Shown in pieces: positions 15,686-63,734 of a stretch of DNA of 64,000 nucleotides. A program made the position numbers and the translations under genes. The notes under the pieces were generated by a model, which did no database searches, was not told the origin of the DNA, and saw nothing but the letters and a program-made list of their open reading frames with translations. The DNA lies in assembly GCA_047602885.1 (NCBI GenBank), contig JBLKOQ010000001.1, positions 10,016-74,015 of the forward strand, read 5' to 3'. The stretch is from Candidatus Woesearchaeota archaeon (GTDB lineage Archaea > Nanobdellota > Nanobdellia > Woesearchaeales > WAPJ01). Each line of letters begins with the position of its first letter. The first letter of the stretch is position 1.

Positions 15686-16324
15686 ATGCAAACCAATATA
15701 AATGATACTATTATAGTATCAATTGATACTAAAATGGAAACGAAATTAAGGATTATAAACAGGATAGACAGGAAAAGCGGCGGAGTGCACATAAGGCAAC
15801 TGGCAAGAGAGGCTAATACAAGCTATAATAATGCAGTAAGAAACATCAGGATACTCGAAAAAGAGAATATTGTAAGAAGAATAAAAGATGCCAACCTCAT
15901 AAAAATATCCCTAAAAGACAATCCTATGACAATAGCATACCTCAAAAAAGTTCATACAGAAAAATACTATAATCTTCCACGAAGAGCAATATTAGCTGTG
16001 AATGAACTAATAAAAGAAATCATCCCAAAACCCCTAATATGCCTAATATTCGGATCATACGCCCGGGGAGATTACCACAAGGATTCGGACATCGACCTGC
16101 TGCTTGTATTCCAGAATGTACAGTCATCAATAAATATAGAAAGACTGGCAAAGGCTATAGGTATGAGAAACAATATAGTTATCAGTCCAATTTACATGAA
16201 CTACAAGGAATATTCTACCAACTTTCTAAACGTAGAACACGATTTCTCTAAAGAAATAAGAAATGACACGATAATAGTTTTAGGACTAGAACACTATTAT
16301 GAGCTATACTGGAGAATATTATAA
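15686..16324 (+). CDS. winged-HTH + minimal nucleotidyltransferase (MNT) domain protein, paralog 1 of 4
   Basis: GSYARGDYHKDSDIDLLLVF polymerase-beta-type NTase motif (GS...DxD) after N-terminal wHTH. Confidence 0.65.
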   Translation: MQTNINDTIIVSIDTKMETKLRIINRIDRKSGGVHIRQLAREANTSYNNAVRNIRILEKENIVRRIKDANLIKISLKDNPMTIAYLKKVHTEKYYNLPRRAILAVNELIKEIIPKPLICLIFGSYARGDYHKDSDIDLLLVFQNVQSSINIERLAKAIGMRNNIVISPIYMNYKEYSTNFLNVEHDFSKEIRNDTIIVLGLEHYYELYWRIL

Positions 16325-28024: not shown

Positions 28025-28525
28025 TTACAATAATAATATCTCTTGGGTTTTGTTCATAAATCCTATGACTTTGCTCTCATATTCTAATATCTTATCATTC
28101 CTAAAACCTATATTAGTGTTATAACTCGCTTTATGCCTGTCATATTTTAAGTCATAATACAATTGTGCGTCCTCCCTATTGATAGACAATTCGTATAATA
28201 AGTCCGCTTCATCTCTTGTCACAAGATACTCTTTTATGAGTATGAGCATAGTCGCATAGTGGTTTTTGGAATAATATCTTCTGTTGGTAATTAAGCTCAG
28301 TGCGCAATGGTAGAATGCATAATACAATATTACTATGAGCCAGTCTGCAAAATTGGTATGGATTTTGTTTATACTATAAAACCTCATATTGTGCTTGGCC
28401 TTATTAGCATGCGAAAAAGCAAGTTCCTTATTCTCCTTAATAATCCTAATCTGTTTTTGCGATTGCAGTATGCTTATCTCGGTCTCCAGATAATGTTTGT
28501 CTGCAAATAGTCGTTCGATATTCAT
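28025..28525 (-). CDS. HEPN-like helical protein, putative toxin partner of the upstream MNT gene
   Basis: 166 aa, 4-nt overlap with the NTase gene; Rx4-6H-like RRYYSKNH; homologous to 61571..62074 (YYAxY...S.NH..T.L). Confidence 0.4.
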   Translation of the reverse strand: MNIERLFADKHYLETEISILQSQKQIRIIKENKELAFSHANKAKHNMRFYSINKIHTNFADWLIVILYYAFYHCALSLITNRRYYSKNHYATMLILIKEYLVTRDEADLLYELSINREDAQLYYDLKYDRHKASYNTNIGFRNDKILEYESKVIGFMNKTQEILLL

Positions 28526-29088
28526 TCTATAATCGCCTCATAAAAATTCTGTTCCTTGTGTATTGGAAAACCTGTCTTTTTTGCCTGTATTATTATATCG
28601 TCATTACTTCGAATAAACTGCTCTGCAGAACAATAGAAGAGCGAGAGAGGATATTTTGAGGTTATCTCAGCCTCTTTCCTGCGCTTATCAAGGTCAGTTT
28701 TTTTATAGTACACTATGAGGAGGTCTATATCGCTGTTTTGATTCTGATCTCCGGTCGATGCAGAACCGAACAGAACTATAGTGTATATGCTTATGGGCAA
28801 GTCTTTGAGGAATGTCCTGAGAGGGCTCTTAACACCAATATTTAATGAATTGAATTTGCGTATTGCTATCTCTGAGAACTTGATTGCAATAATCTTTTTA
28901 TCACTAATAGAATAGTATACGTTTTGCCTGGTCTTTTCAGTTTTTAGTATGCCTTGCCTACTCATTCTGGCAAGAGTGTTCTGCAAAGAACTATGTGATA
29001 GCATAGTAGTTTCCTTAATCTGGTTATAGTACATCTTTTCTCCCTTCTGCACAAAGTATGCGTTGTATATTCTGTCTTCCGGTTTCAT
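28522..29088 (-). CDS. winged-HTH + minimal nucleotidyltransferase (MNT) protein, paralog 2
   Basis: LFGSASTGDQNQNSDIDLLIVY NTase motif, N-terminal wHTH. Confidence 0.65.
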   Translation of the reverse strand: MKPEDRIYNAYFVQKGEKMYYNQIKETTMLSHSSLQNTLARMSRQGILKTEKTRQNVYYSISDKKIIAIKFSEIAIRKFNSLNIGVKSPLRTFLKDLPISIYTIVLFGSASTGDQNQNSDIDLLIVYYKKTDLDKRRKEAEITSKYPLSLFYCSAEQFIRSNDDIIIQAKKTGFPIHKEQNFYEAIIE

Positions 29089-29184
29089 GAAAACGGTGTT
29101 GTTATATTGCCTTAAATAGTTTACCTTTTTTTGGTAATATTTTACCTATTTTTGGTATATTGTGATTGTTTTGTTAATAATCTT

Positions 29185-31230
29185 TTAATGTACCATTCCC
29201 ATGGCCCTGTCAAAAGCATCCTTGGCCAGAGAATATCCTCCCTGAGGATGGTTAAAAGAGCCCCATGACAAGGAATAGACATTGTTGGGAGTGGAAAGTA
29301 TTCTCGCATGACTGGTACATTGATCCCTACATCCCTTGTCAATAATATCAAGTGTTATCCTATTCGCATTATTATCATAATATAATAATGCATCATAATT
29401 GTCTAATTCCAACAATAATTCAATATCACTATTATTATTTCCAAGGTATCCTAACAGTCTTAATGCGCTATTATCATAAGTATCATTGTTGTTAATGCTG
29501 ACATTGTTTTCATACCCCCTAATTATTCCTTCAAGCCTTGCAATCTCATTTTCATTATCCCTAATTATGGACTCGTAAGAGCTAATCAAATTATCTTGGT
29601 CTTCTAAAGCACTGGTAAGATTGTTTAATCCTGAAAGCTGGACTTCTAAAGACGTTATAGTGGATTGCTGGTCTCTTATGATAGTACGGTATTCTGATAA
29701 TTGGCCTGCATTATCATTATTTTGAGTCCTCTCATGATTAAGCGCCTGTTCCAGCTCTTCTATAGTATTGTCTTTCTCGCTTATCGTGGATTCGTAAGAA
29801 GCAATCATTTTTTCCTGTTCTTCAACAATCACAATAATCTCGCCCATAGTAGAAAACAGTCCTTCGTAATATGCTATGCTGGCAGCCTGGTCATTAATAA
29901 TAACAGAATACTCTGAAAGTCGCCTAGCACTATCATTATTATGGGCTTTCTCATTATTGAGGGCTTGTTCGAGTCCTTCTATAGTATTATTTCTCTGTGA
30001 TATTATCCTTTCATATTCCGAGATAGTATCATCACCAATACTGCTTGTTAGTATATTGTCAATATCATCTTCAAGCCTACTAATAATATCATCCTTCTCT
30101 CTTATCATAGACTCATAGGAAATAATGAGGCTATTTTTCTCTTCTAAGACATCAGTCATGCCCGATAATGACGATAGCTGTATTTCAAGAGATGATATTG
30201 TAGACTGCTGATCAGTTATTATAGCGTTATATTCTGACATTTGAACAGAATAGTCATGATTATTTCTTCTCTTACTTTCAAGAGCCTGCTCGAGACTTAG
30301 AATAGTACTATCATAATCGCCTAGTTGGCTCCTAAGATTATGAACAGAAGCCTCTAATGAAACTATCCTAGTGTTCTTTGATGCTATTATACCCTCATAA
30401 TGAGACACAATATTAGTAGTGTCAGAATCCTCTAATAATGATGCAATATCGTTTTCTAGCCTGCTAATAGTATTATCCCTATCCCATACCATGGAATTGT
30501 ACTGATCTAGCAAAGACTCATTATCACTGATTATTGCATTAAGATTGTGCACAGTATTCTCAAGCGATGATATAGTAATATTATGCTCATTAATAATCCT
30601 CTCATAATCAGTGGTTGAAGATGACATCCTTACAATCATATCATTATGCTCTGCAATAACACTTTCATAGTCAGCTATAGTAGCTTTTAAGGAATCATTC
30701 TCTGCTGTCAAAGCATCTATTCTTGACAATGATTCGGAATGGCTGGAGCGCAGCGATATTAGTTCGTTACTCCTCCTAGTATCAATCTGCTGGGCATTAA
30801 TAATCCTAGCATTAAGAGATTCGTTTTCAATAGACAAAACATTAATCCTATCAAGAGCATTCTCATAATCAGACAATGCAGTCTTTACAACATGGGACTC
30901 TCCAGCCCTTTCCATACCAATCCTATAATGATGAATGCCCTCAAGAGCCATAGTCAAAGCCCCTATGCCTACAGCCAATGTTATAGAGCCTCCTAATAAT
31001 GTTTTTTTATGCCTCGCATAAGCCTTAGACAATCTCCTACCAAATCCCATGCCCTTATTATCATTAGGAGACATCTCTTTAATCCTGCGCTCATAATCCG
31101 TATCAAATATATTGTCATCCATAAAGAACAGAATATCATCAGTATTAATAAGAAAAACGTGGAATAATCCGAAAATATCACGATGGAGTACTAGAAGATT
31201 TCTTGAATATTTCTTTAAGACCGGGAGCAT
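29185..31230 (-). CDS. membrane-anchored long coiled-coil protein with about 115-aa tandem repeats and a Cys-containing C-terminal globular domain
   Basis: TM helix near aa 85-105; about 450 aa of repeated ...LSEYxxIIxDQQSTIxSLExQLSxL...YESxIxEKDxxIxxLE... units. Confidence 0.55.
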   Translation of the reverse strand: MLPVLKKYSRNLLVLHRDIFGLFHVFLINTDDILFFMDDNIFDTDYERRIKEMSPNDNKGMGFGRRLSKAYARHKKTLLGGSITLAVGIGALTMALEGIHHYRIGMERAGESHVVKTALSDYENALDRINVLSIENESLNARIINAQQIDTRRSNELISLRSSHSESLSRIDALTAENDSLKATIADYESVIAEHNDMIVRMSSSTTDYERIINEHNITISSLENTVHNLNAIISDNESLLDQYNSMVWDRDNTISRLENDIASLLEDSDTTNIVSHYEGIIASKNTRIVSLEASVHNLRSQLGDYDSTILSLEQALESKRRNNHDYSVQMSEYNAIITDQQSTISSLEIQLSSLSGMTDVLEEKNSLIISYESMIREKDDIISRLEDDIDNILTSSIGDDTISEYERIISQRNNTIEGLEQALNNEKAHNNDSARRLSEYSVIINDQAASIAYYEGLFSTMGEIIVIVEEQEKMIASYESTISEKDNTIEELEQALNHERTQNNDNAGQLSEYRTIIRDQQSTITSLEVQLSGLNNLTSALEDQDNLISSYESIIRDNENEIARLEGIIRGYENNVSINNNDTYDNSALRLLGYLGNNNSDIELLLELDNYDALLYYDNNANRITLDIIDKGCRDQCTSHARILSTPNNVYSLSWGSFNHPQGGYSLAKDAFDRAMGMVH

Positions 31231-32321: not shown

Positions 32322-32903
32322 CTATCTTATCATCTCATAGAAATATTCCGTTCCGTGCAATATAATATTATTATTAATCGCTTCTGAGCCCACAGTAAAT
32401 TCTTTAGACATACTCATAGACTTGAATTCTGTTTCATTAAAAACGTTGATATGTAGAGGCAGTGGTATAGTGGATGATATGCTCATTATTTCTTTATTCA
32501 TAATTTCTTCTAGACCATCGGGTATGATGAACAATAGATCAATATCAGAATGTCTTGTTGGGTTTCTTTTAGCATAACTTCCAAAAAGCAACAATACGAA
32601 GAATACAGTACTCATATTATTATAATAGCTTAAAACTGCTCTTATCGTCTTATTTCTTAGGATATCTTCTCTTCTATTATGCTCTGCTTCAAATATGTAG
32701 GGGTGCGGTTTTTTTACTAGTGTGACTTTGTGGGCATTTCCAAAAGGCTCTAATACTACTATGTTATTGTTTGCTAATCTCATAATTATATTATGCATGT
32801 TCTTATAATCCTTTTTTAGTATCTTGGCCAGTCCTCTAATGCTCAATCTCAGGTTATTGTAGTCCAATAATGCCTGGATAACTTTTACATCTGCTTTTTG
32901 CAT
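32322..32903 (-). CDS. winged-HTH + minimal nucleotidyltransferase (MNT) protein, paralog 3 (no HEPN partner)
   Basis: LFGSYAKRNPTRHSDIDLLFII NTase motif. Confidence 0.6.
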   Translation of the reverse strand: MQKADVKVIQALLDYNNLRLSIRGLAKILKKDYKNMHNIIMRLANNNIVVLEPFGNAHKVTLVKKPHPYIFEAEHNRREDILRNKTIRAVLSYYNNMSTVFFVLLLFGSYAKRNPTRHSDIDLLFIIPDGLEEIMNKEIMSISSTIPLPLHINVFNETEFKSMSMSKEFTVGSEAINNNIILHGTEYFYEMIR

Positions 32904-33149
32904 GTAAATATCACCATAATTTTATGTATATAATTACATATTTATATTTTTTTTTGTATGCTTAAGCGCACAATACCAGATTGTTAGTGTTTTATGGTAT
33001 GATACATTAGCAAAATAATGATTAATAGGAGTGCACAGAAACCTATACAAGATAACGGTCTATAGGCTATACATAGATAATAATCTCTTTATATATGTCA
33101 TTATAAACCATTATAAATCCGTAGCGTATTCATAGGTTAGTGATACTAT

Positions 33150-35421: not shown

Positions 35422-38400
35422 TTGGGCTTGAAACAAGTTGTAGTGCAAGTAACGATAGTAGTAGTTATAATAGCTGCGCTTATATTCACATTCTTTAGTA
35501 TTGGAGAGCCTACAATTACAGGTTATGCTGTATTTGAGAGCAGTGTTAGTAATGTCAGTTATGACGTGGAAAGGGTAGTGTTGCCACAAGAAACTTATAC
35601 TATTCAGTTGGAAGATAATGTTGTTGTAAGAGGAATAGTAATTAATGGTTATTATATTGCAAGCAAAGATTCTAGTATTATTGCAAGGCTTGATGAAGGG
35701 ACTATTAGTCATGAATTGAGGTTGAGAAGCAATGTTATTACTGGCATGGCTATCGGTGCTGGAGAAGTTGAGAGTGGTATGATAGAAGAAGACTTGGCTA
35801 ATAGGACTTTGTTGAGGTATGGTGATGGTCCTTATGATATCGATAATGATGGAATGGTAGGGAGACAAGGAGCAGTAGACTATTATGTTGAAACTAATGC
35901 TTCTTGTGTATTATGGAGTATTGTAGGGGATGATGTTGACCTATTCTGTCAGGGAACAATAGAATGCTGTGACAGTTATCTATTGGAGAGCATGGATGAC
36001 AATCCCAATTATTTAGTGTTGGATAGGCAAAGAGCAGGTGCTGACAGAGGAGAAGTATTGGCCAAAGCTGACGGTTATGATTTTAGTAGAATGTTGCCTT
36101 ATGATTTTACTGGTGCTGAGGAGAGACTGGTAAGATTGGATGATGTTTGTTTGGGAAGTTGTAATGTTAGGATGCAGAGCAGTAGTATAAGGATAGAGAG
36201 CAGTGCTTATTTGCATATAGACAGGATTATAGTATATTATGATGATTTGCCAGACGATGAGATATTTGATACAGAGGATGGCAACATAATAGAAGAAGTA
36301 TTACCAGAAAAAAGAGTCATAAGAGAAGAGATGATAGAATATATAGTGTATGAGTCAGAAGGAGGTATTATTGGAAGAACCGTCTCAGAACTAAAAAGTC
36401 ATTATGGTCTTAGCAGGGCATCTGAACGTTCAGCAAAGATATTTTCAATGGATTATGAGCATATCAGTGAAGAGGAAGAAACAGAGTATACCGAAGGGAT
36501 TAATGCTCATATAATTAGAGTATCATCAGAGCTTCTAAATCTAGTAACAGAAGAAAGCGTAAGAATCATAATATTAAATGAATCAGGAATATACTCAGAA
36601 TACGCCAATAATTTATCAGAGCTAAACGAAATACTACACTCTAAAGAAGTTATAACAGCTAGTATCGACAGACAAATAGAATTGTTAACACAAGATACTC
36701 TTAATGCATCAGGGTTTATATCAGTATATAATGAGTATGAGGTTTCTGGTTCTGGTGTTCGTGTATGTATTGTAGATACGGGTGTATCGGGTCATGTGGT
36801 TGAGAATATATCATATACTGGTGTCAATGTTCTTGATGGTACCGATGACATAATGGATTACCATGGCCATGGTACTCTTGTTTCGTACCCTTTGATTCGT
36901 GCATTACCTGATGCCCATTATGTGATTGTAAAGGCTTTGGATGATACTGGGATAGGATATGAGTCTGATGTTATTTCTGGATTGGATGCGTGTGCTGAAC
37001 ATGATGTTGATGTTGTTTCTCTTTCTATAGGAGCTGGATTGTATGATGGGTACTGTGATACTAACCTTGTATCAGAGCGTGTGAATGAACTTGTGTCTGA
37101 AGGAGTCTTGGTAGTTTCTGCTGCAGGTAATGAGGCTGGTCCTTATTTGAAGGCTCCTTCATGCGCTTCCTCTGCTCTTGCAGTTATTGCTTACACTGAT
37201 GATTCGTTATGGTATCAGTCTTCATACTTGGAAGGTCATGCAGTATTTGCCGCTCCTGGTGTTGTTGAGACTATTGGTCCTGATGGTTCTGTGGTTTTAT
37301 CTTCTGGTACGTCTATGAGTGTTCCTTTTGTTAGTGCAGCTGCTGGTTTATTGGTTGAGTATACTAATGACACGGGACTAGTGTTACGTAACAGACTGGT
37401 TGGCACAGGTGATCTGCTTGGTGATGAGTTCTTGTTTTCTCGTCTGAATGTTTCGAGGGCTTTTTCGGGTGAGATTACGAATGAGTTGTTGTATAATATT
37501 AGCGAGGGCGTTGAGGTAGAGGGGACTGTATATTATCGTGGTACGAGTTTTATTGCAGGAACTATCACCACAGGAAATGGGCATTCGTGTGGTATTCGTG
37601 CTGTTGATGGTCGTGTTTTGTGCTGGGGTAGGAATAACGTGGGTCAAATTGGCGATGGTACAACTGCAGGTCCTCGTACGAATCCTACTTTAACTACTGA
37701 TACTTCTGCATATACTTTTATTTCATCAGGCGAACAACATTCGTGTGGTATTCGTGCTAATGATTCTCGTGTTTTGTGCTGGGGTAGTAACGGGAATGGT
37801 GTGCTTGGTGATGGTACTACTGTTCAGCGTGAAAATCCTACTTTGATTAATGATTCTTCAGCGTATCTTACACTTGGGTTAGGTCAAGGTCATTCGTGTG
37901 GTATTCGTGCTAATGATTCTCGTGTTTTGTGCTGGGGTTGGAATGGGAATGGTCGACTTGGTGACGGTACGGATGAAGCTCGTTGGAATCCTACATTGAC
38001 TTCTGATACTTCTGCATACAGCGGAATAACTGCAGGTGCCCACTACTCGTGTGGTATTCGTGCTAATGATTCTCGTGTTTTGTGCTGGGGCACTAATAAT
38101 TATGGTCAGCTTGGTGATGGTACAGATGTTGTTCGTTGGAATCCTACATTGACTTCTGATACTTCCGCTTACCTACATGTTTCTGGAGGAGGTTGGCATT
38201 CGTGTGGTATTCGTGCTAGTGATTCTCGTGTTTTGTGCTGGGGTAGGAATAACGTGGGTCAGATTGGCGATGGTACTACCACCACTCCTCGATTGAATCC
38301 CACTTTAACTACTAACACGTCTGCGCATGGTACTGTTTCTGCTGGAAACGATTATTCGTGTGGTATTCGTGTCAATGATTCTCGTGTTTTGTGCTGGGGT

Positions 38401-41400
38401 GCTAATGATTATGGTCGGCTTGGTGATGGTACTACTACAGGTCCTCGTACAAATCCCACTTTGACTGCAGACTCTTCTGCATATGTAGCCGTTTCAGCGG
38501 GGGATTGGCACACTTGTGGTATAAGATCTTACGATGGTCGTGTGTTGTGTTGGGGGTATAACGAGTTCGGTCAGATTGGCGATGGTACCACTACGACTCC
38601 ACGTCAAAATCCAACGCTTACAAGCAACATGGCTCCATTCGCCGAAATTCCTTGGGTCTTTACAACATGCGAAGCAACTGGTCGCACTGGTCCTACTCAA
38701 GGTATGTGTGACGATGCATACGAATACTCTTATCTGAACAATAGTGTAACTGTATCTTCAGGCATACAATCATGGACTGTTCCTGAGACGGGATGGTATA
38801 ATGTTACTGCAGTTGGAGCTCAAGGAGGATACGGTGGGAGAACGGGTGTTGGGGGATACGGCGCTCTCATTTCAGGTGCTTTCTACTTCGAAGAGGGAGA
38901 GACAATCAATGTTCTCGTTGGTCAGAAAGGTGGAGATAACTCGTTTCGACCGGCAGGTGGTGGTGGAAGTGCAGTGTGGAAGGATACTGGAACCGAACTC
39001 CTCATCGTCGCTGGAGGTGGAGGAGCGTATGCAGTTGGAACAACGACCACCTACCAGGACCGAGCACACGCGAGCAACACAACAAGTGGGAAGGATGGAT
39101 TTGGTGCCACGGCTCAGAGCGTGGGTGGAACCGGAGGTCTTGGAGGTGCCGGAACAGGTAACCGAGCCTCTGGTGGTGGAGGATGGTTTACTGATGGTGG
39201 ACAGGGCACGACGGCTGACAGTCGTGGCCGATCCCTCTCAGGAGGGGGTCTTGGAGGTGGTGGTGCTGTAGCTGACGGTGGATTTGGTGGTGGCGGAGCG
39301 ACCGATAGCACGACGACATGGGGTGCTGCTTCTGGTGGTGGTGGGTACTCTGGTGGTGGGGGTGGGTATTCTAACACAAACGATGCTGAAGGAGCTGGGG
39401 GCGGTGGAGGATCATACAATTCTGGGTTGTTCCAGTATAACGTCGGAGGAGAGAACGCTGATCATGGCTTGGTCATTATCGAGCCATACGGTGATGTCTC
39501 ATTACTCACCGTGGGAGTTACTCCTTCTCCCGAAGCGAACGCTACCGATGATCTTCTTGGATATTGTACGAGTGATGTCATCGATGGATTCGACCGGATC
39601 GACTATGAGTGGAGACGTGACGGCATAGTCGAGTACATGGGAACGTACTTTAGAGCAGATACGATCACAGCGCATGAAGCTCACACTTGTGGTATTCGTG
39701 CTAATGATTCTCGTGTGTTATGTTGGGGACGCGCGGGTAGTGGTGAGATTGGGAATGGAAGCAAGCTACCACAAGTGCTTAATCCAACACTCACCTCTGA
39801 TACTGATCCTTACCTTCAAGTGAGCGTCGGATTCACTCATTCGTGTGGTATCCGCTATGACGGAAGAGTGCTCTGCTGGGGAAACAACGCTGAAGGGCAG
39901 TTGGGAACAAACGATACGACTGAACGACTCGTTCCTACTTTGATTGCGGATGATGCTGCCTACCATTCCCTCAGCGCAGGATACCGGATGAATTGTGCGA
40001 TACGTGCTAATGATTCTCGTGTGTTATGTTGGGGTGACAATGTATTCTCTCAACTCGGCAGTGGAGGTGGATCGGTGAGCGTTCCGAGGCTCATCAATGA
40101 TACCGCTTCCTACCTGATGGTTTCCACTTACAAGTACCACGCGTGTGGTATTCGTGCTAATGATTCTCGTGTGTTGTGCTGGGGGATGAACTGGTACGGT
40201 CAGGGTGGTAATGGAACAACTGACGAGTTCGTGTCATCCGAGACTCCGACCCTCACGACCGATAGTTCACCATATGTAATGGTAACAACAGGTGCCTCTC
40301 ATACGTGTGGTATTCGTGCTAGTGATTCTCGCGTGTTGTGCTGGGGTCGTAATAATAATGGGCAGCTTGGAATCGGTTCGAGCGGTACAAATGTCGGTAA
40401 CCCCACAACGACTTCAGATTCATCTGCATATCACTACATAGATGCTGGTTGGCAGTTCTCATGTGGCATCAGATCGTCTGATAATAGAGGTCTTTGTTGG
40501 GGGGATAATGGTGAGGATAAACTTGGTATCGGAACGACCGGTAATCGTGAAAACCCTACACTTATATCTGCTTCGTTTGCGATATCGTTGATTACTGCTG
40601 GTGAACGCCATGGGTGTGTGGTTCGCTCTTCGAATGGGCGTGTGTACTGCTGGGGACAAACTGCTGAAGGACGTACAGGAGATGGGGTAGGTATTGGTAC
40701 TGAGCACACACCGACGCTCACAACAGACACTTCCTCGTATGCGTACTTACCTGCTATTGCCTCTGGCGTGCAGTATAACCTCTCAACACTTGACTCAACG
40801 ATAACGAATGGTGGAGACTCATGGACGTTCTCATGCCGGATTACAGACGGTCGAACGACCTATCCATACGAGGAGAGTGCTACGATAACGATTGCAAACA
40901 TTATTCCGATTTATTCAAAGTTTGATGGTTCAACAACGAACTTTTCTGATGCTAGTGTTGTTCCTGACCTTTCAAGCGTGAGCAATCCGATTCTTGAGAT
41001 ATCCACGTTCGGACGCATCACATGGAAAGGTATGGTAAACGTTCCTAGTTCAGATTATGATTCTCATGTGCATATTGGTTATCGGTACATTTTTGTTAAT
41101 AGTAGCGCGTTGCATTCATCTCATGATTCGGGTTCGAATTTGAGCTTTTATGATACGGGCTTCGTGCATGCTCCTGTCATCCTCAAAGATAGTTCTGTGT
41201 GTGAACAACCCTTGTGTAACATGACTGGATTTGTTGATGGTTACGTGAATTACTCAGTGGCTGGTTTCTCAAACTACACGCTTGATTCTAATAGTCGATT
41301 GGAGATCTGGGATGGTACTGATCCTCAAGGAGGAAATAATTCGTATGAGGTTGGTGAATCGGTGCCTTTCTATGCAAATTATTCGAATCTGACTTCTGGT

Positions 41401-44400
41401 GAACCGATTTCGGGTTCGGGGAACGATTGTGAGATCCAATTTGATACTGGGAGCGGGTATGGGAGTTTTATAGAGATGGAATTTAACGCAACAAGTAACT
41501 TGTACGAGTACAACACCACATTTGGATCTGCAGGGACGTTCAGTTATAACGTGAGTTGCACTAGCACCCAAGGATATGAGAACCTGAGCGTGACTAATGA
41601 GTTCACATACAATCCTGCAAACTGTTTTGACAATTCGACGAGTCCTATACCAATTTGTACATGTACTGATCTTAGCAGGATGTGGGAGAACCTTACAGCA
41701 AACTATGAATTGCAGAATAATATAGACTGTAGTGATACTATTAATTGGAATGATGATGAGGGATGGCTGCCTGTAGGGACAACAGGTACGGGTTTTAGTG
41801 GTACGCTGGATGGGCAGGGATATAATATTACTGACTTGTTCATTGCTCGAAATAATGTTGGTTATCAAGGTTTGTTTGGTCAGTTAACTACAGGAGGAAG
41901 CATTACTGATTTAGGTTTGGTGAATGCGAATATCACCATAAAAGACACACTCAGTATAGTGACTCCATATATTGGGATTCTTGTAGGATATATCGATGGA
42001 GGCAGTGTCTCTGGATCTTATGTCACAAATAGTATTCTCTATAGTGATTTTCCCTCTACTGGTGGTCTTATAGGAGAAATGAGTGGTGGTAGTGTTGTCT
42101 CATCTTCTTTTGTTAGTGGTTCTAGTGTTTCTTCTTCTACTAGTAATGTTGGTGGTCTTATAGGAAGAATGAGTGGTGGTAGTGTGTCATCTTCTTATAC
42201 GGTGGATTCTAGTGTTTCTTCTACTGGTAGTAGTGTTGGTGGTCTTGTAGGATATATGCTGAGTGGTAGTGTTGTTTCATCGTCTTATACTATTGGTTCT
42301 AATGTTTCTTCTACTAGTACTCGGGTTGGTGGTCTCGTAGGAAGAATGTGGAGTGGTTCTAGTATTGTTGATTCTTACAGTACTAGTAATGTTTATGCTC
42401 TTGCAGGAGAAAACTTACAATATCATGGTGGACTAGTAGGACAAAACTATAGGGGAGTGATAAACAATTCTTATAGTACAGGAATAGTTAATAGTACACA
42501 TGATGATAGTGGTGGTTTTGTAGGAAGCGTAGATACAGGAGCTGCGACTTATGGTATGTATGGTAACTTCTGGGATAACCAGACAAGCGGTCGTAGTACT
42601 AGTGCTGGTGATAATGTAACAGGACTTACTACAGCGCAGATGTATAATATCAGTCAGTTCTTAGCGGCAGATTGGAATATTAGTGAGATTAGCGGTTATA
42701 ATAATGAGACTTGGTTTATTGATGATGGTAATGATTATCCTAGATTATGGTTTGAGTTTGATCTTGCTTTATTGGATATTGAGTCTGTAGGCATTATTCC
42801 AAGTCCTTTTGCTTTGGATGATGAGAATCTCGTAGGGTATTGTAGTGCTACTGGTAGTGAGAATTTTACGAGGTTGGATTATTTGTGGTATAAGGATGAT
42901 GTAGTGGAGTATGGGGGTGCTTATTTCAAGGAAGGAAGTATTAGTGCTGGTGGGGAGTTTTCTTGTGGTGTTCGTGCTAATGATTCTCGTTTGTTGTGTT
43001 GGGGTGCTAATTTTGTTGGTAAGTTGGGTATTGGTAATACTACTCATATGTATAGTCCTGTTTTGGTTGATTCTTCTGATGCTTTTTTGAGTGTTTCTGT
43101 GGGTGTTTCTCATTCTTGTGGTGTTCGTGCTAATGATTCTCGTGTTTTGTGTTGGGGGCTAAATAGTGAGGGGCAGTTGGGTATTGGTAATACTACTGAT
43201 ATGTTTAGTCCTGTTTTGGTTGATTCTTCTGATGCTTTTTTGAGTGTTTCTTTAGGTAGTTTTCATTCTTGTGGTGTTCGTGCTAATGATTCTCGTGTTT
43301 TGTGCTGGGGTGGTAATATTTATGGTCAGTTGGGTGTTGGTAATACTACTGATATGTTTAGTCCTGTTTTGGTTGATTCTTCTGATGCTTTTTTGAGTGT
43401 TTCTTTAGGTAGTTTTCATTCTTGTGGTGTTCGTGCTAATGATTCTCGTGTTTTGTGTTGGGGTGGTAATTGGGTTGGTCAGTTGGGTGTTGGTAGCGCT
43501 GTTTATGATTCGTGTTTTGATGGTTATGAATATTACGATTGTAGTTTGAATCCTGTTTTGGTTGATTCTTCTGATGCTTTTTTGAGTGTTATGGTGGGTG
43601 TTTCTCATTCTTGTGGTGTTAGGGCGAGTGATTCTCGTTTGTTGTGTTGGGGTGCTAATGCTAATGGTCAGTTGGGTGTTGGTAATACTACTGATATGTT
43701 TAGTCCTGTTTTGGTTGATTCTTCTGATGCTTTTTTGAGTGTTGGTCTTGGTTTTGGACATTCTTGTGGTGTTAGGGCGAGTGATTCTCGTGTTTTGTGT
43801 TGGGGACGTAATTTTGGAGGTCAGTTGGGTGTTGGTAATACTACTAGTCCTATTATGGTTCCTGTTTTGGTTGATTCTTCTGATGCTTTTTTGAGTGTTG
43901 ATGGTGGTTTTGGTGGTGGTTTTGGTGAGCAGCATACGTGTGGTGTTCGTGCTGTTGATGGTCGTGTTTTGTGTTGGGGTGATGGTTCTTTTGGTGCTTT
44001 GGGAACAGGCAATACTAGTTCTCAGTTGAGTCCGACTCTTACTATTGATTCGAGCAGTTATCTTAGGGGGCTTTCTCCGCAGACGACTTATAATGTTTCT
44101 TTGATAGGGAGTGGGTTGACTAGTTTGGGGGAGGAGTGGAAGCTTAGTTGTCGCGCTGTAAATGTTACTAGTGCGGGGGATTTTGTTAATTCTACTGTTA
44201 CTACGATTGATGAGGGTGAAGAGGGTTTGGATTGTGGTGTTATCGATGAGCCTGGAGAGTATATTATGAATGGCGACCTTGCGGCTACCGGAACTTGTAT
44301 TACTATTAATGTTAGTGATGTTTCATTAGATTGTCAGGGTCATACGATCAACTACTCTACAAACGATGACGAGGGCTACGGTATCCTGATATGGAGCCAG

Positions 44401-47400
44401 AGCGGGACGGTCGAAAACGTGAGTATCGCGAACTGTAACATCATCAAAGAGAGTCCTGGAGGGAGCTCAGGGAGTAGGCGCCCAGCTATCCTCGGATACG
44501 GCTACTCAGGTACTCCTTCAGGAGGTTTCACAAAATCAGGTGATGAGCATACTGTTGAGCAAGTAAATATATCGAACGTTACTATCACGACCGAGGGAGA
44601 TTATGCTCGAGGCATATTTGTCTTAAGTGGTCATACTTGGAGTGTCGAAGATGTCTCTATCACAACGTATGGAGATGATGCCCGAGGAATCTACAGCGAG
44701 AACTCTGATCATTGGAGTCTCAGGAGAGTTGATATCACGACCTTTGGAACTGTAGGGATAGGACTGTATACGATCGATGCAAACCACTACTATCTCAAGG
44801 ACATCGATATCACTGCTGCGAGCGCAGGCATGTGGATCCGCACGGGAAGTTCGAACTGGCGGGCAGAGAACATTTCGATAAATGCTACGCTTCAAGGTAT
44901 CGCGACATCGGACGGAGGTATGGCTCACATGAGTTTTTACAACTCTACGATCCACTCATCAGGAAGCCGGGGATTAGATACCAATCAAGGTACAGATAAC
45001 ATCAGCTTCTACGATTCTATTATCACCGCTCCATCAAGTGACGATGTATACATGCGTCTTGGTGATGCGAGTCGGCGTGTTACGTTCGTCAACGTGACTT
45101 TCAACCCTTCCAGTGTCACGTTCCATGACTCGACCTCAGGATTCCTCGACGTTGGATGGTACGTCGACTTTCTCGTAAACGATACTCTAAGTTATCGAGT
45201 TGAGAATGCTAATATTAGTTGGCAGGATTCTGGTGTTATGAGCAGTTTGAACCCTAACAGTACTGGTTGGAAATTAACTGATAGTGGTGGATTGTCTCTA
45301 AGAAATATATTGTATGAGTACTCGCAGAACCAAACTGCTAGGTACTATCATACTAACTATAGCTTCGACATAAGTAGCCCATCATACGCTTCCCTTGTTG
45401 GAGCGTCTAGGAACTTCACTACAAATACACAATTGGATTTTACTATAGAGCCATTGTCGTTGGAGTGTGGTGTTATTAGCGAGCCTGGCTCTTATGTTAT
45501 GACTACTAATCTTACTGCTACAGGCACGTGTTTCACTATTAATGTTAGTGATGTAATACTGGATTGTCAGGATTATACTATTAATTATTCGACTGCTGAT
45601 GAGGGTTATGGTATTTTGATTTGGAGTCAGTCTTCTAATGTGGATAATGTTACGATACAGAACTGTGTTGTTGTGCAGGGTTCTGGTGAGGGTGATGTGA
45701 ATAGTGCGCGTCCTGGTATTTTGGGTTGGGGTGTTAATAATGGTCCGAGTGGTGGTTTGTCGAGTGTTAGTGGTATTTTTTATGAGGTTACTAATGTTTT
45801 GGTTGTGGATTCTAGTATAGTAACATTGGGTGATCGTTCGGATGCTATTAGGGGTGCGGTTTCGTATGACTGGGATGTTGTGGGTGTGAATGTTTCTACT
45901 GCTGGTCAGCTTGCTTCGGGTGTTTTTGGTACTTTTACGGGGGGTTGGTTGTTGTCTGGTGTTGATTCTTTTACTACCGGTGATAATTCTAGGGGTTTTG
46001 CTAGTTGGGATTCTGTTGATTGGGAGATTGTGGATTCTCGTTCTGAGGTTACTACTTTTTATTCTTATCCTATTCGTGCTGAGGAGGGTTCTCATGGATG
46101 GGTTCTGTCCAATGTTTCTCTTATCTCTGATGGTTTTGAGTCTGATGGGCTTCATGTGATTGATTCGGATAATTGGATGGTTGAGGGTCTTTTTGTTTCA
46201 TCATCGGGCACTCAGGCTGATGCTTTTTATTTAGAGGATTCTGATGGTTGGATGGTTTATGATTCTGATTTGTCTAGTGGGTCTGCGTTTGATGTTGTTC
46301 TTAATCTTAGTGATTCTTCGTATCGTGTTGGTTTTGTGAATACGAGTTTTGATCATTCTAGCGTGTCTCTTCTTACTCCGGGCTGGCTTGATAGGGGTTG
46401 GTGGGTGGATGCGTATGTGAATGATAGTCTTGGCAGTCCTGTAGAGGATGCTAATGTCTCTTGGAATGATGCTGGTATTATTAGTGGGAATCCTAGTAGT
46501 AGTGGTTGGAATGTTACTGATGATAGTGGACTTAGTGTTAGGAATGTCTTGTTTGAATATTCTGAGAATCAAACTGCGAGATATTATAATACTAATTATA
46601 CTATTAATGTTAGTCATGAGGATTATGATGATCTTATAGGAGAGTCAAGGAATTTTACGGGTAATACGCAGTTGAACTTTACTTTTTTGGGTGAGTCTTT
46701 AGAGTGCGGTGTTATTAGTGAGCCTGGCGAGTATGTTATGACTTCTGACTTGTCTGCTGCTGGTACTTGTTTTACTATTAATGTTTCTGATGTTAGTTTG
46801 GATTGTGGGGGTCATACGATTAACTATAGTACTGGTGAGGAGGGTTATGGTATTTTGATTTGGAGCCAGGGTGGGTTGGTTGAGAATGTGAATGTTAGTA
46901 ATTGTAATATTGTTAAGGATAGTGAGGAAGGTAATAGTTCGAGTCTTAGGCCTGCCTTACTTGTTTATGGTCGTAGTGCTGTTCCTAGTGGTTCTATTAG
47001 TGGTATTGCGGGTACTGCTCATTATGTAGATAATGTGTCTATTAATAATGTTAATGCTAGTAGTAAGGGAAATTATAGTAGTGGGATTTTTATAGTGCGA
47101 GGATGGTATTCTTCTATTAGTAATGTTATGGTTGATACTGATGGTAATTGGAGTTTTGGGATATGGGGCGATTACTCTTCTTATTGGAATATTTATAATA
47201 CTAGTATTTTTTCGTTAGGGCTGTTTAATGTTGGTCTGTATGGGGTGGATTCTAATTTTTGGGTTTTAGATAGTTTAAATGTAGATGTTGAGTTCAATGA
47301 TGGTCATGGTATTATTGGTTTTCGGTCAAATTCTTGGATTCTTTATAATGTTACTGTTATTGCTGACGGTTCTACAGTTAGGGGAATATCTCTATGGGAT

Positions 47401-60918: not shown

Positions 60919-61041
60919 AAAATGGTAGTATTAACAGTAATTATAAACTATTACTCAAACTCTGCAAACCAAGGCTGGTTCTTATAAGAGTTCCTTACAA
61001 GTATAGAAAGACATATAAACATTGTTTTATTTTCAGAACAT

Positions 61042-61662
61042 ATGTTGCAAAAATCGAACAATATTGCGCTTGATATCATAGAATTATTGGTTGTAAAAGA
61101 CTTACACCTAAGAGCAATATCAAGAACACTATCATATAATCCAAGCACAGTACTAAGCAAACTGAATAGCCTGATGGAAGACAACATATTAGACTATAGG
61201 AGAGAAGGCAAAAACAAGATATTCTTCCTCAAAAAGAACCAATGGACAAAAAACTATCTTGTCCAAATGGAATGCCACAAAGCACTCAAATTTTTCCGAA
61301 AAAAACAGGAATTCAGCGTAATTTTTGAGGAAATACTAATGAAAACTGATGCGCAATTAGTATTATTGTTCGGAAGCTATGCGAAAGGCACAGAAAAAGG
61401 CAACAGTGACATAGACATATACGCAAATACCAAAAACATCCGAGATGTCAAGGAGATAAGAAGCATCCATGCCAGAATAAGGGCTACTATAGGAGAACTA
61501 CAAAAGGATACGGAACTATTCAATGAGATCATGAACAACCATATTGTCATAAGAGGAGCTGAAAAACTGTATGAGGAATACTGGTTTCCTGAAAAAACTG
61601 GCAAGAGAACACAAAATAAGCATCTTAGAACCCTCAAAAAACCTAACAAGAGCATACCTTAA
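61042..61662 (+). CDS. winged-HTH + minimal nucleotidyltransferase (MNT) protein, paralog 4
   Basis: LLFGSYAKGTEKGNSDIDIY NTase motif. Confidence 0.65.
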   Translation: MLQKSNNIALDIIELLVVKDLHLRAISRTLSYNPSTVLSKLNSLMEDNILDYRREGKNKIFFLKKNQWTKNYLVQMECHKALKFFRKKQEFSVIFEEILMKTDAQLVLLFGSYAKGTEKGNSDIDIYANTKNIRDVKEIRSIHARIRATIGELQKDTELFNEIMNNHIVIRGAEKLYEEYWFPEKTGKRTQNKHLRTLKKPNKSIP

Positions 61663-62074
61663 CAAGGCGCAAGACTGCTATGAGAGCGCAGCACTGCTAA
61701 GAACGAATCGTCACTATCAAAACTCAATAATAATGTCATACTATGCAATGTACAACAGCATAACCTCAATATTATATATGAACGGAATAAAATCGTCAAA
61801 CCATTCCGGCACCATAATGTTATTTGACCTATTATATGAGGAGAAAGAGATATGCGATATTATAATAGGAGCAAAAAAGAGCAGGGTAGAAAACCAGTAC
61901 AGTCCAAATAAACATAATGAGGAAGTAATGAGCGAGCTCTCAGAAGAATTAATAATGGCTTCGGGTATGATAATAAGACGGATAAAAACACTAATACAGG
62001 CAAACAAGCAGGATGATACAGAACAAAGAAGAAAAACCCTCTTAAAAGTCCTAAATGTGAGCAATGACAAATGA
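61571..62074 (+). CDS. HEPN-like helical protein, homolog of 28025..28525, partner of the MNT gene
   Basis: Shares YYAMY...SSNHSGTIML with the other HEPN-like ORF; overlaps the NTase gene (the start codon may be non-ATG). Confidence 0.4.
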   Translation: MRNTGFLKKLAREHKISILEPSKNLTRAYLNKAQDCYESAALLRTNRHYQNSIIMSYYAMYNSITSILYMNGIKSSNHSGTIMLFDLLYEEKEICDIIIGAKKSRVENQYSPNKHNEEVMSELSEELIMASGMIIRRIKTLIQANKQDDTEQRRKTLLKVLNVSNDK

Positions 62075-62129: not shown

Positions 62130-63734
62130 ATGCACCCAATATTACTAAAGAGCATAGCTGTAAAGCATTATTTTAGGAGTATAATCAGCGATGCGATTGC
62201 AGAAGAATGTATGAATAGAGAAGTAGCAGTAAAATATTCTTATGGGTTCGGCAAGAGGCCTGAAATGATAGAGACAGGCGCAGAAATAAGGCAATTGGCA
62301 CTCCAAGGATCTACAAGCTATCATATAAGCGAAGAACTATGGGAAAACCCGTTAGACATTAAGACTGGGATGACAGAAAAAGAATACAACAATATAAGGA
62401 TAGGATGGGACCTCATAATAGACATAGACGCTCCCGACTGGAGGTTCTGCAAGGTAGTATGCGCTACTATGATAAGAGTACTAAAAGACCTGGGAATAAA
62501 AACTATAAGAGTGAAGTTTTCGGGCAACAAAGGATTCCACATAGGAGTGCCATGGGAATCATTTCCTAAAGAAGCATCATACAACAATAATACTGCAGAA
62601 CTATCATCATTATTCCCTCAACTTCCTAGAGAGATAGCAAGAATCATGATAGCAGAAGCTGACAAAAACCATATAAGAATAGACGACCAAGGAAAAATAA
62701 TATTTTTGGAAGAACACTATTTTGAAAGAGAAGAAATAAAAGAGATACTCGGAATAGAAGACAACGAACTCCTAGTAAAAAAGTGCGAGTCATGCAACAA
62801 TATCTATGAAGAGGACAAGACTAGAGTATACGAGTGCCCGAACTGCATGGCAAGAAGAGTATCAGAAGAAGAATACCTAAAATGCACAAACTGCAATATA
62901 GACATGAACATAATAACAAAAGTTCCGAGATGCGAATGCGGCAACACCACTTTTTATACAGCACTAAATGTAGAGAGAATACTCCATTTAGACACGCTCC
63001 TAATAAGTCCCAGGCACTTATATAGAAGTCCGTACAGCATCCACGAGAAATCAGGACTATGCAGCATACCTATAGACAAGGATACAGTACTGGGATTTGA
63101 GAAGCATTATGCAAGACCAGAATACATAGCAAAAATAATACCTTTCATTAATAGTGAGATAAGAGAGGGTGCTAACAGCAAAGAAGGAGTAAGACTCATA
63201 AGAATGGCACTGGACAATATACAAGAGCCTCTAAAAGAAACATCCTACGAAGAAATAGATGTTCCTAAAGAAGCCCTAGGAGAAGAACATTATCCTCCGT
63301 GCATAAAGAATGCATTGCAGGGAATAAAAGACGGCAAGAAGAGAACAGTACTGATAATGTCAAGCTATCTTAGGAGCATAGGATGGGATAAGAGCAGCGC
63401 AGAAAAGATAATATACTCGTGGAACAATAAGAACGAAGAGCCTCTAAGAGAAGTGTACATTAAAGGACAATTAAGACATGCATTCCAAGGAAAACCTATG
63501 CTGCCGCCGAACTGCGACCACAAGGACTATATGAAAGACATAGGACTATGCACTCCCGACGAGTTCTGCATGACCATAAGAAATCCCGCCCAATACTCAA
63601 AGAAGAAGCACGAGATGAAAAAGACTATAAGAAAGGGAAGGAAAAAGAAGGATGCCAACAAAGAAAAAAAGAAAGAAAAGAAAGAGGAAAAGACTCATAA
63701 TAAAGAGGAAAACAATAATGAGAATAACACCTGA
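62130..63734 (+). CDS. archaeo-eukaryotic DNA primase with fused domains: PriS catalytic domain with Zn-ribbon insert plus C-terminal 4-Cys PriL-CTD-like domain
   Basis: AEP motif I LIIDIDAPD, motif II FSGNKGFHIGVPW, motif III DTLLISPRHLYRSPYSIHEKSG; CxxC...CxxC ... CxC zinc ribbon; C-terminal Cys in PPCIKNAL, PNCDHKDY, LCTPDEFC; K/E-rich tail. Confidence 0.65.
   Translation: MHPILLKSIAVKHYFRSIISDAIAEECMNREVAVKYSYGFGKRPEMIETGAEIRQLALQGSTSYHISEELWENPLDIKTGMTEKEYNNIRIGWDLIIDIDAPDWRFCKVVCATMIRVLKDLGIKTIRVKFSGNKGFHIGVPWESFPKEASYNNNTAELSSLFPQLPREIARIMIAEADKNHIRIDDQGKIIFLEEHYFEREEIKEILGIEDNELLVKKCESCNNIYEEDKTRVYECPNCMARRVSEEEYLKCTNCNIDMNIITKVPRCECGNTTFYTALNVERILHLDTLLISPRHLYRSPYSIHEKSGLCSIPIDKDTVLGFEKHYARPEYIAKIIPFINSEIREGANSKEGVRLIRMALDNIQEPLKETSYEEIDVPKEALGEEHYPPCIKNALQGIKDGKKRTVLIMSSYLRSIGWDKSSAEKIIYSWNNKNEEPLREVYIKGQLRHAFQGKPMLPPNCDHKDYMKDIGLCTPDEFCMTIRNPAQYSKKKHEMKKTIRKGRKKKDANKEKKKEKKEEKTHNKEENNNENNT

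Follow-up and report, generated by a model that had tools for sequence, protein, structure and literature searches.

The window analysed here, a stretch of 64 kb, is part of a chromosomal contig of a Woesearchaeota (DPANN) archaeon. This work concerns a pair of overlapping genes in it, referred to as pair 1, in which a winged helix-turn-helix (wHTH) domain fused to a minimal nucleotidyltransferase (MNT) is encoded ahead of a small protein predicted to be of the HEPN type. A preliminary description of the window had read the locus as a toxin-antitoxin (TA)-type pair and had listed, in addition, a second homologous pair and two partner-less wHTH-nucleotidyltransferase (NTase) paralogs. All of the open reading frames (ORFs) and coordinates in that description were found to be present as given. 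The genes, motifs, and promoter elements of pair 1 are as follows.

28522..29088, minus strand: wHTH-MNT gene of pair 1 (188 aa); ORF supported by Pfam NTP_transf_2 and Polbeta, PADLOC, and an AlphaFold2 (AF2) model
28025..28525, minus strand: predicted HEPN partner gene of pair 1 (166 aa; UPF0332/PF05168 or "HEPN-T" type), extended at the N-terminus by ~30 aa; supported by an AF2 model, Foldseek, and Pfam matches of orthologs
28522..28525, minus strand: ATGA stop/start overlap of pair 1 (NTase TGA at 28522-28524, partner ATG at 28523-28525, 4 nt shared)
28957..28995, minus strand: predicted recognition helix of the wHTH domain, residues 32-44 (HSSLQNTLARMSR), helical at 32-44 in the AF2 model
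28723..28767, minus strand: NTase catalytic motif G108-S109-X10-D120-I-D122 (GSX10DXD), invariant in 120/120 homologs and present in all four paralogs of the window
28256..28282, minus strand: candidate RNase motif R82-R83-Y-Y-S86-K87-N88-H89-Y90, aligning to RDSKTH (Rx4H) of AF0298
28121..28138, minus strand: second invariant motif R130-H131-x-A-S134-Y135 in the C-terminal region of the HEPN protein, from the homolog alignment
29143..29157, minus strand: operator copy 1, palindrome TACC-AAAAATA-GGTA (TACCAAAAATAGGTA), from the comparative pattern
29122..29136, minus strand: operator copy 2, palindrome TACC-AAAAAAA-GGTA (TACCAAAAAAAGGTA), forming a 21-nt direct repeat (D1) with copy 1
29112..29118, minus strand: TATA box TATTTAA, ~30 nt 5' of the ATG at 29088
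29088, minus strand: start codon (ATG) of the pair-1 NTase

The 4-nt overlap lies within the sequence ...GAATGAAT..., and the ATGA arrangement agrees with what the preliminary description had claimed for this junction.

Identity of the two proteins

The product of the upstream gene is composed of a wHTH domain (residues ~1-62), a linker or dimerisation helix (64-80), and a minimal nucleotidyltransferase domain (~97-188). Pfam detected NTP_transf_2 (3.1e-10) and Polbeta (1.3e-8), and the AF2 model (pLDDT 92) consists of two domains. In Foldseek searches, the N-terminal half matched Sso10a-2, the ArsR-family proteins SqrR and HlyU, and MarR, while the C-terminal half matched MntA (7bxo_A, 24% identity), the Legionella MNT antitoxin (8xeo), and HI0073. 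Five residues around the catalytic motif (G108, S109, S119, D120, and D122) were invariant in 120/120 homologs. GSX10DXD was shown by Yao et al. (PMC7641770) to be necessary for the AMPylation of HepT. The Pfam, Foldseek, and alignment results together bear out the earlier identification of the protein as a wHTH-fused MNT, with its catalytic motif intact. The PADLOC model PDC-M05A (PDLC04368), for which there is no curated cut-off, matched the pair-1 NTase with an E-value of 1.2e-16 over residues 5-126 and the other three paralogs of the window with values of 3e-8 to 4e-11. Since this model spans both the wHTH and the NTase regions, the wHTH-MNT fusion has already been catalogued as a candidate defence component.

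The 166-aa partner of the window, submitted alone, gave nothing useful in Pfam (E <= 1), NCBIfam, PADLOC, or the PDB sequences. Its HEPN identity is therefore drawn from the family alignment and the predicted structure. Among its orthologs, 26 of 31 individually matched Pfam PF05168 (best 7e-6), and database sources label them UPF0332 or HEPN; the family is PF05168, with no match to DUF86 or PF08780. The AF2 model calculated from the family alignment (pLDDT 88) is an all-alpha helical bundle, and a Foldseek search of the PDB with this model returned HEPN proteins at all of ranks 1-13. The top match was AF0298 (2hsb; probability 1.00, TMt 0.75), and the further HEPN matches included the sacsin HEPN domain, TT1696, the HepT chains of MntA-HepT complexes, and ST0689. 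By its predicted fold and family profile, the pair-1 partner is a HEPN protein. The preliminary description had proposed HEPN-type partners and a comparison of both with HEPN profiles; the similarity was found for each of them, with the second partner matching Pfam HEPN at 2.9e-10, although the first partner of the window has no Pfam match of its own. The two partners are weakly but significantly similar to each other (BLASTP 24% identity, E = 2e-5; hhalign E = 6e-5, probability 65%).

The family profile aligned ...VTLYYALYHSALALITNKKYSSKNHYATILILI... with ...STAYYAMFHAAKAMLLGYGRDSKTHRGTIYLIW... of AF0298. The RRYYSKNH segment, which had been pointed out beforehand and indeed occupies residues 82-89 of the 166-aa partner (28259..28282), coincides in this alignment with the Rx4H motif of a solved HEPN protein. 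S86, K87, N88, and H89 were invariant in 120/120 homologs, and Y90 was conserved in 119. Position 82 was always basic, with Lys in 87 and Arg in 33 of the 120 homologs, giving a family consensus of [KR]-N-Y-S-S-K-N-H-Y. The window protein, with R82/R83-x5/6-H89, fits an Rx4-6H motif; partner 2 (GIKSSNH) has no Arg. The second motif is equally well conserved (R130 in 119, H131 in 118, S134 in 120, and Y135 in 120 of the 120 homologs), and the HEPN protein of pair 2 carries SRVENQY at the equivalent place. AF0298/UPF0332, besides being the best structural match, is the sole PDB match of the family profile, and its Rx4H aligns with K.YSSKNH; the Woesearchaeal family differs from it in sharing only 16% identity and in having the N-terminal extension of ~30 aa and, within the motif, two inserted residues.

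The HEPN copy of the window departs from several near-invariant positions of its family (FF19-20 to SI, K41 to N, E48 to R, N60 to A, and D132 to K) and lies on a long tree branch, while all putative catalytic residues are retained. Either a deep-branching host or accelerated evolution would account for this deviation.

Paired operators and residue 32 of the wHTH domain

Comparison of the NTase upstream regions revealed a distinctive promoter architecture. Two 15-nt palindromes, each with 4-nt arms and a 7-nt A-rich spacer, were located exactly 21 nt apart in 45 of the 56 orthologous regions. Other genes of these loci had the paired pattern in 3/901 of their upstream regions, shuffles gave it in 0/11,200 cases, and the only exact matches to the operator pattern in the 64-kb window were the two pair-1 sites. 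The proximal palindrome ended 2-3 nt before the TATA box in 38 of the 45 loci, and the distance from the start of the TATA box to the ATG was 29-32 nt in 35 of the 45. In the window, operator copy 2 ends 3 nt ahead of the TATA box, over the expected position of the transcription factor B recognition element (BRE). From the established archaeal promoter layout and the TATA-to-start-site spacing, we infer that the proximal operator covers the BRE and that the mRNA is leaderless. Occupancy of the operator would then obstruct the BRE, so that repression rather than activation is the predicted outcome. The 21-nt spacing corresponds to two helical turns, which suggests that two dimers bind cooperatively to the same face of the DNA.

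The arms of the operators occurred in three symmetric variants, CT(C/T)C...G(A/G)AG, TACC...GGTA, and TGCC...GGCA, which were distributed among the loci as follows.

Arm base pair L2/R3 T/A: residue 32 Asp, helix LSDSSL, 21/21 loci
Arm base pair L2/R3 A/T: residue 32 His, helix LSHSSLQN, 14/14 loci
Arm base pair L2/R3 G/C-type: residue 32 Asn, helix LSNSSLQN, 9/10 loci

The arm type thus tracked residue 32 (D, H, or N) in 44 of the 45 loci, the window belonging to the H type. Residue 32 stands at the start of the predicted recognition helix and appears to be a candidate specificity determinant; in other words, whether the operator base pair is T·A, A·T, or G·C appears to be dictated by one residue (D, H, or N). 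In a neighbour-joining tree calculated for the concatenated pair, the arm classes were interspersed; for example, L055 (D, CTCC) was sister to L051 and L052 (H, TACC). This distribution suggests several independent, concerted switches of the operator and residue 32 rather than one clade effect, on a tree that is crude and leaves the number of events uncertain.

Because the operator arms co-vary with residue 32, there is strong comparative evidence that the wHTH domain binds the dyads as a dimer, and the same co-variation of protein and DNA strongly supports autoregulation of pair 1. Pair 1 in this respect has features of a type II-like TA operon, namely a wHTH domain in the putative antitoxin and palindromic dyads, its predicted binding sites, in its own promoter. 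A precedent is found in the validated MntA of Shewanella, which represses its own promoter via two palindromes without a recognisable DNA-binding domain (PMC4621449).

An explanation of the palindromes at the RNA level was also considered and rejected. Rfam and tRNA scans of the window were empty, the elements precede the TATA box, and a 4-bp stem closing an A-rich loop of 7 nt is not strong enough to act as a hairpin or terminator.

Class membership, conservation, and proposed mechanism

The orthologous family of pair 1 covers at least 58 Woesearchaeota/Nanoarchaeota species. Each protein has hundreds of homologs, and wherever the source names the organism, all are from Woesearchaeota, Nanoarchaeota, or related metagenome-assembled genomes. 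The orthologs are ~57-64% identical to the window copy and nearly uniform in length (165-168 aa for HEPN and 190 aa for the NTase). A profile search over 1.84 billion 50%-identity representatives gave 266 hits at E <= 1e-3, 13 of them at E <= 1e-30. The full-length hits were matched from their N-terminal end, and no MNT-HEPN fusion was present among the best 150 of the 266 hits, so a relationship to MNT-HEPN fusion proteins was set aside. As judged from its sequence profile, the pair-1 HEPN is a small discrete clade inside the HEPN superfamily. A scan of one genome per GTDB species (185,579 species genomes) yielded 64 loci, essentially one per genome, and ~64-77 of these species genomes carry pair 1 at comparable conservation. 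In the ~55 loci with both genes intact, the order of NTase then HEPN was constant, and the genes always overlapped, with 11 nt shared at 38 loci and 14 nt at 8. The divergence of the NTase and that of the HEPN protein were correlated (r = 0.79). The flanks, in contrast to the pair, were variable: the largest flanking family was found in 6 of ~60 loci, and synteny shared with the window was almost nil, with only LemA and an M48 peptidase recurring near the pair in 2 loci. A housekeeping operon context was ruled out by this lack of recurrent neighbours. Pair 1 is an autonomous two-gene unit with its own promoter, unusually conserved and with no direct sign of recent mobility.

Pair 1 belongs to a common archaeal class of TA-like pairs and matches the PADLOC candidate PDC-M05A. 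By its sequence motifs, it is a Class II HEPN/MNT module, that is, a PF05168 HEPN gene beside a PF01909 MNT gene bearing GSX10DXD, in the absence of RX4HXY. This class was first predicted by Makarova et al. 2009 (PMC2701414) and defined by Yao et al. 2020 (PMC7641770). In common with it, pair 1 has a PF05168-type HEPN gene downstream of and overlapping a GSX10DXD MNT gene, a conserved Tyr in the HEPN protein, and an archaeal-rich distribution. It is unlike other Class II modules in that its MNT has an N-terminal wHTH domain and a defined double operator; a component that binds DNA, encoded in trans, had been the speculation of Makarova et al. 2009 (PMC2701414). It also keeps [KR]x6H with an invariant His and is far more conserved than typical members.

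Validation exists for the Class I type VII HepT/MntA systems, exemplified by Shewanella SO_3166/SO_3165, the Aphanizomenon HEPN/MNT, and the Legionella HEPN-MNT (PDB 5yep, 7bxo, 7ae6, and 8xeh). On sequence criteria, pair 1 is not one of them: its HEPN protein is PF05168 and not DUF86 (PF01934) or PF08780, RX4HXY is absent, and the NCBIfam MntA_antitoxin equivalog gave 30.3 bits against a cut-off of 60. The resemblance is nevertheless extensive, including the gene order with MNT upstream, the overlap, GSX10DXD, the MNT fold (7bxo_A, 24% identity), the HEPN fold, two palindromes in the antitoxin's own promoter, and a Tyr near the catalytic His. The differences, apart from the HEPN family, are that the pair-1 motif is [KR]x6HY, with Tyr adjacent to His, instead of RX4HXY with Tyr at +2; that MntA has no recognisable DNA-binding domain, whereas the pair-1 MNT has a dedicated wHTH; and that toxicity and AMPylation are validated there and putative in pair 1. 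Of the earlier TA-type reading, the architecture and gene order of HEPN/MNT modules were upheld, but the pair falls in the PF05168 Class II, outside validated type VII HepT/MntA, and the TA or defence label is an analogy.

The domain identities, the gene order and overlap, the conservation of catalytic residues, and the operator architecture with its recognition-helix co-variation were all computed directly. Building on them, we regard it as reasonably probable that pair 1 is a self-contained, autoregulated Class II HEPN/MNT two-gene operon, in which a wHTH is fused to the MNT and the MNT nucleotidylates and silences a HEPN RNase. The wHTH-MNT protein is likely to repress its own promoter and likely also to restrain the RNase-like HEPN protein. 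In the proposed mechanism, a bicistronic and probably leaderless mRNA would start ~30 nt downstream of the TATA box. The wHTH-MNT would be translated first, and the HEPN protein would follow by translational coupling, as expected from the overlapping stop and start codons (ATGA). Dimers of wHTH-MNT would occupy the two identical dyad operators, two helical turns apart, and the proximal one, lying over the BRE, would shut off the promoter of the pair. The MNT domain would bind the HEPN protein and, as in type VII HepT/MntA, nucleotidylate Y90 or Y135, keeping the [KR]x6H RNase site silent. On loss of MNT or at low ATP, a HEPN dimer may cleave RNA and arrest growth, which would appear as addiction, stress-response, or abortive-infection behaviour. 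The nucleotidylation of HEPN, its RNase activity, and its toxicity would all correspond to what is known of type VII, where MntA AMPylates a Tyr beside the HEPN active site (PMC7641770). Y90, next to the His at the catalytic position, and Y135, in the C-terminal R-x4-Y motif, are the candidate nucleotidylation sites by this analogy; a conserved C-terminal Tyr has been described in MNT-associated HEPN proteins by Anantharaman et al. 2013 (PMC3710099) and Yao et al. 2020 (PMC7641770). The two invariant tyrosines thereby become explicit candidates.

Several observations weigh against the self-silencing TA-like operon. Yao et al. 2020 (PMC7641770) noted "no biochemical studies" for Class II, which is without the RX4HXY motif, and regarded its TA status as needing validation; in our literature search, no paper, including later ones, validated any Class II (PF05168) HEPN/MNT pair biochemically as a TA. 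To the MntA_antitoxin score, which is half of the cut-off, are added the lack of any PADLOC match at E <= 1 for HEPN partners 1 and 2 and the replacement of the canonical Arg at position 82 by Lys in 72% of the orthologs. Mean column identities of 79% and 81% among the orthologs, with uniform lengths, are unusually high for a TA module. The neighbours of pair 1 in the window (LemA, an M48 peptidase, a coiled-coil protein, a TraB-family protein, and an M17 aminopeptidase) are ordinary chromosomal genes. No relative of pair 1 was found in 2.9 million viral contigs (IMG/VR) and no integrase or transposase among the window neighbours tested, and viral or mobile carriage was rejected on these results. 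Finally, one ortholog (P0057; L066-L070) has the order RecQ-family helicase, NTase, HEPN, and HerA/DUF87-like ATPase, with ORF6N-domain genes upstream, and this context is identical in all 24 contigs of one Woesearchaeal population with no sign of mobility.

Several of these observations favour a domesticated, lineage-conserved regulatory module. In it, HEPN would not be toxic but would serve the NTase as a substrate-binding or regulatory subunit, an arrangement comparable to that in kanamycin NTase or GlnE-type enzymes; the complex would modify some other target (protein, RNA, or small molecule), and the wHTH would couple the level of the enzyme, or other genes, to that signal. The signature of very strong purifying selection in at least 58 species, with lengths uniform throughout, the single copy per genome, the stable position in one population, the absence from viral contigs, the ordinary neighbours, and the Lys in place of the catalytic Arg in most members all point this way. 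The pair is, moreover, more conserved than the flanking proteins shared between loci (67-69% versus 50% identity in all 94 comparisons, which include 11 at 100% identity from one duplicate locus pair and are limited by uncertain orthology among the flanking genes). It has been proposed that MNT-HEPN was domesticated to yield regulatory enzymes (PMC3710099), and a precedent exists in cls.004259/NEQ050, a DPANN-conserved MNT-HEPN fusion in a housekeeping context with a suspected important cellular role (Makarova et al. 2019, PMC6393860). This cluster resembles pair 1 in that its MNT and HEPN domains are unusually conserved in DPANN archaea, and its description sets it apart as a single fused polypeptide, in contrast to the two genes and the wHTH of pair 1. 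The conservation of both raises the same question of domestication. However, no conserved neighbourhood ties pair 1 to any pathway, and the invariant S-K-N-H together with the basic residue at the HEPN active-site position argue for kept catalysis. It is typical of TA operons to be tightly autoregulated and translationally coupled. The presence of the pair in ~64-77 of 185,579 species genomes does not make it demonstrably universal in the lineage, and the operator pattern, being found nowhere else in the 64-kb window, gives no view of a wider regulon. We consider domestication in this form doubtful. A variant that retains the enzymology is likewise unlikely in our estimate: pair 1 might be a domesticated, vertically inherited switch of Woesearchaeota/Pacearchaeota rather than an addiction or defence system, in which a self-repressing wHTH-NTase would reversibly nucleotidylate a HEPN RNase and so control RNA turnover or translation in reduced-genome symbionts, as a two-gene counterpart of the NEQ050-cluster fusion.

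Dedicated antiviral defence through abortive infection, in which an infecting virus would upset the MNT or the pool of ATP and so free the HEPN RNase, is quite improbable. It would suit the matches of all four wHTH-MNT proteins to PDC-M05A hidden Markov models (best 1.2e-16), which cover their wHTH and NTase regions, as well as the nature of PDC-M05 itself, an archaeal-enriched combination of NTase and HEPN thought to be of archaeal origin (PMC12988326), and the island-like grouping of extra NTase/partner modules around the conserved pair, seen in several genomes. An antiviral role has yet to be confirmed for PDC-M05 itself (PMC12988326), however; the HEPN partners of pairs 1 and 2 match neither M05B nor any other PADLOC model (E <= 1), no known defence genes flank pair 1 in the window, and the conservation of the pair is atypical for fast-evolving defence genes. 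A wHTH-NTase acting primarily as a transcription factor, with the NTase domain as a ligand sensor and HEPN as a merely co-transcribed target without enzymatic interplay, would agree with the two window paralogs that function without a partner and with the palindromes in the promoters of other paralogs, but it is very improbable given the invariant GSX10DXD, which argues for a working transferase, and the strict pairing, overlapping genes, and correlated divergence (r = 0.79), which point to physical and functional coupling.

HEPN/MNT pairs have been described as the most abundant TA-like modules in archaea, with Class II being archaeal-dominant. For the regulation of Class II, the pair-1 family, having a DNA-binding domain fused to the MNT and an operator that is readable from comparative data as two dyads spaced by 21 nt over the BRE, is a clean case that can be put to the test. 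What is new here is the tight orthologous family of pair 1 and the comparative inference of its operator and recognition code. The unusual conservation of the pair also bears on whether some TA-like modules in the reduced genomes of DPANN archaea became cellular regulators.

Paralogs, the second pair, and other genes of the window

Hidden Markov models built locally from the pair-1 families and run against the ORFs of the window found exactly four NTases and exactly two HEPN partners. The members outside pair 1 are listed below.

61042..61662, plus strand: second wHTH-MNT gene, pair 2 (206 aa); Pfam Polbeta 5.7e-9, NTP_transf_2 1.1e-5; PDC-M05A 3.1e-8
61571..62074, plus strand: second HEPN partner gene, pair 2 (167 aa), with the motif GIKSSNHSGT and no Arg; Pfam HEPN 2.9e-10
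15686..16324, plus strand: partner-less wHTH-MNT paralog (212 aa as called); Pfam NTP_transf_2 3e-9
32322..32903, minus strand: partner-less wHTH-MNT paralog (193 aa); Pfam Polbeta 2.7e-6, NTP_transf_2 1.7e-5, HVO_A0114 wHTH 1.6e-5

All four NTases scored above the curated Pfam cut-offs for NTP_transf_2 and/or Polbeta, had weak N-terminal wHTH matches (MarR, ArsR, TrmB, and HVO_A0114), and shared FGS-X10-DIDL. Their pairwise identities were only 15-17%, which rules out recent local gene amplification, and they fell in separate subfamilies that were found again in other genomes. In the ~20-kb flanks of 60 orthologous loci, there were 27 extra NTase paralogs, ~19 of which have an overlapping small downstream gene. 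The preliminary description had taken the four copies in the window to indicate an expansion; this is misleading, since the subfamilies are old and the density of such modules near the orthologous pair is similar elsewhere. The presence of many old, divergent HEPN/MNT-type modules per genome is normal for the Woesearchaeota lineage and for archaea generally, as was reported for archaea at large (PMC2701414).

The second homologous pair proved to be real, and its partner is HEPN by Pfam, but the similarity of the two partners is weak and the pair-2 genes overlap by 92 nt as called, compared with 4 nt in pair 1. The long overlap results from a C-terminal extension of ~25 aa in the NTase that is absent from the paralogs: the pair-2 NTase runs past the paralog end (...YEEYW) over 61586..61662. 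Loss of a stop codon, or a HEPN start called in the wrong place, may account for this. The pair-2 HEPN has one other relative (44% identity) among 5.8 billion proteins, which is also paired with an NTase (overlap 32 nt) and is surrounded by another NTase/partner cluster. Pairs 1 and 2 behave very differently, pair 1 being unusually conserved and pair 2 nearly unique.

Neither of the two orphan NTases (15686 and 32322) has space downstream for a partner gene, in agreement with the earlier listing of both as partner-less. Relatives of the 15686 paralog (24-39% identity) are HEPN-paired in other genomes (L032, L034, L054, L057, and L064), so the copy in the window has, to judge from these relatives, probably lost its partner.

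Short palindromes were also noticed by eye, without statistics, at the other wHTH-NTase paralogs, just 3' of the TATA boxes or across the start codon. At the 15686 paralog, three GATACTA/TAGTATC half-sites (15704-15710, 15714-15720, and 15725-15731, two of them 21 nt apart) are flanked by a TATA-like ATATAAA at 15696-15702 and by an ATG that is in frame, at 15734. This ATG may be the true start, giving a protein of 196 aa, and the repeats may be the paralog's own operator. ATGTA-N6-TACAT (32924..32939) precedes the gene beginning at 32903, and AACATATGTT lies across the ATG at 61042 (61037..61046). Similar palindromes were seen at paralogs in loci L034, L038, L043, L054, L057, L065, and L012. 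The sequences suggest a separate operator for each paralog, at a position unlike that in pair 1.

Scans of the 64 kb detected no tRNA gene and no Rfam family at the gathering threshold. Directly upstream of the pair-1 promoter, the minus-strand ORF at 29185..31230 encodes a 681-aa protein that is an internally repetitive, long coiled coil, built of repeating ...SEY..II.DQ.STI.SLE.QLS.L... units and having weak Pfam coiled-coil matches. Directly 3' of pair 2, the 534-aa product of 62130..63734 (plus strand) matches both small- and large-subunit DNA primase models of Pfam, indicating a predicted fused PriS-PriL primase. A single ORF of 4,486 aa occupies 13.5 kb at 35422..48882 (plus strand), with a raised GC content (up to 0.51) and a strong positive GC skew; it probably encodes one of the giant surface or adhesin-like proteins that are frequent in DPANN genomes.

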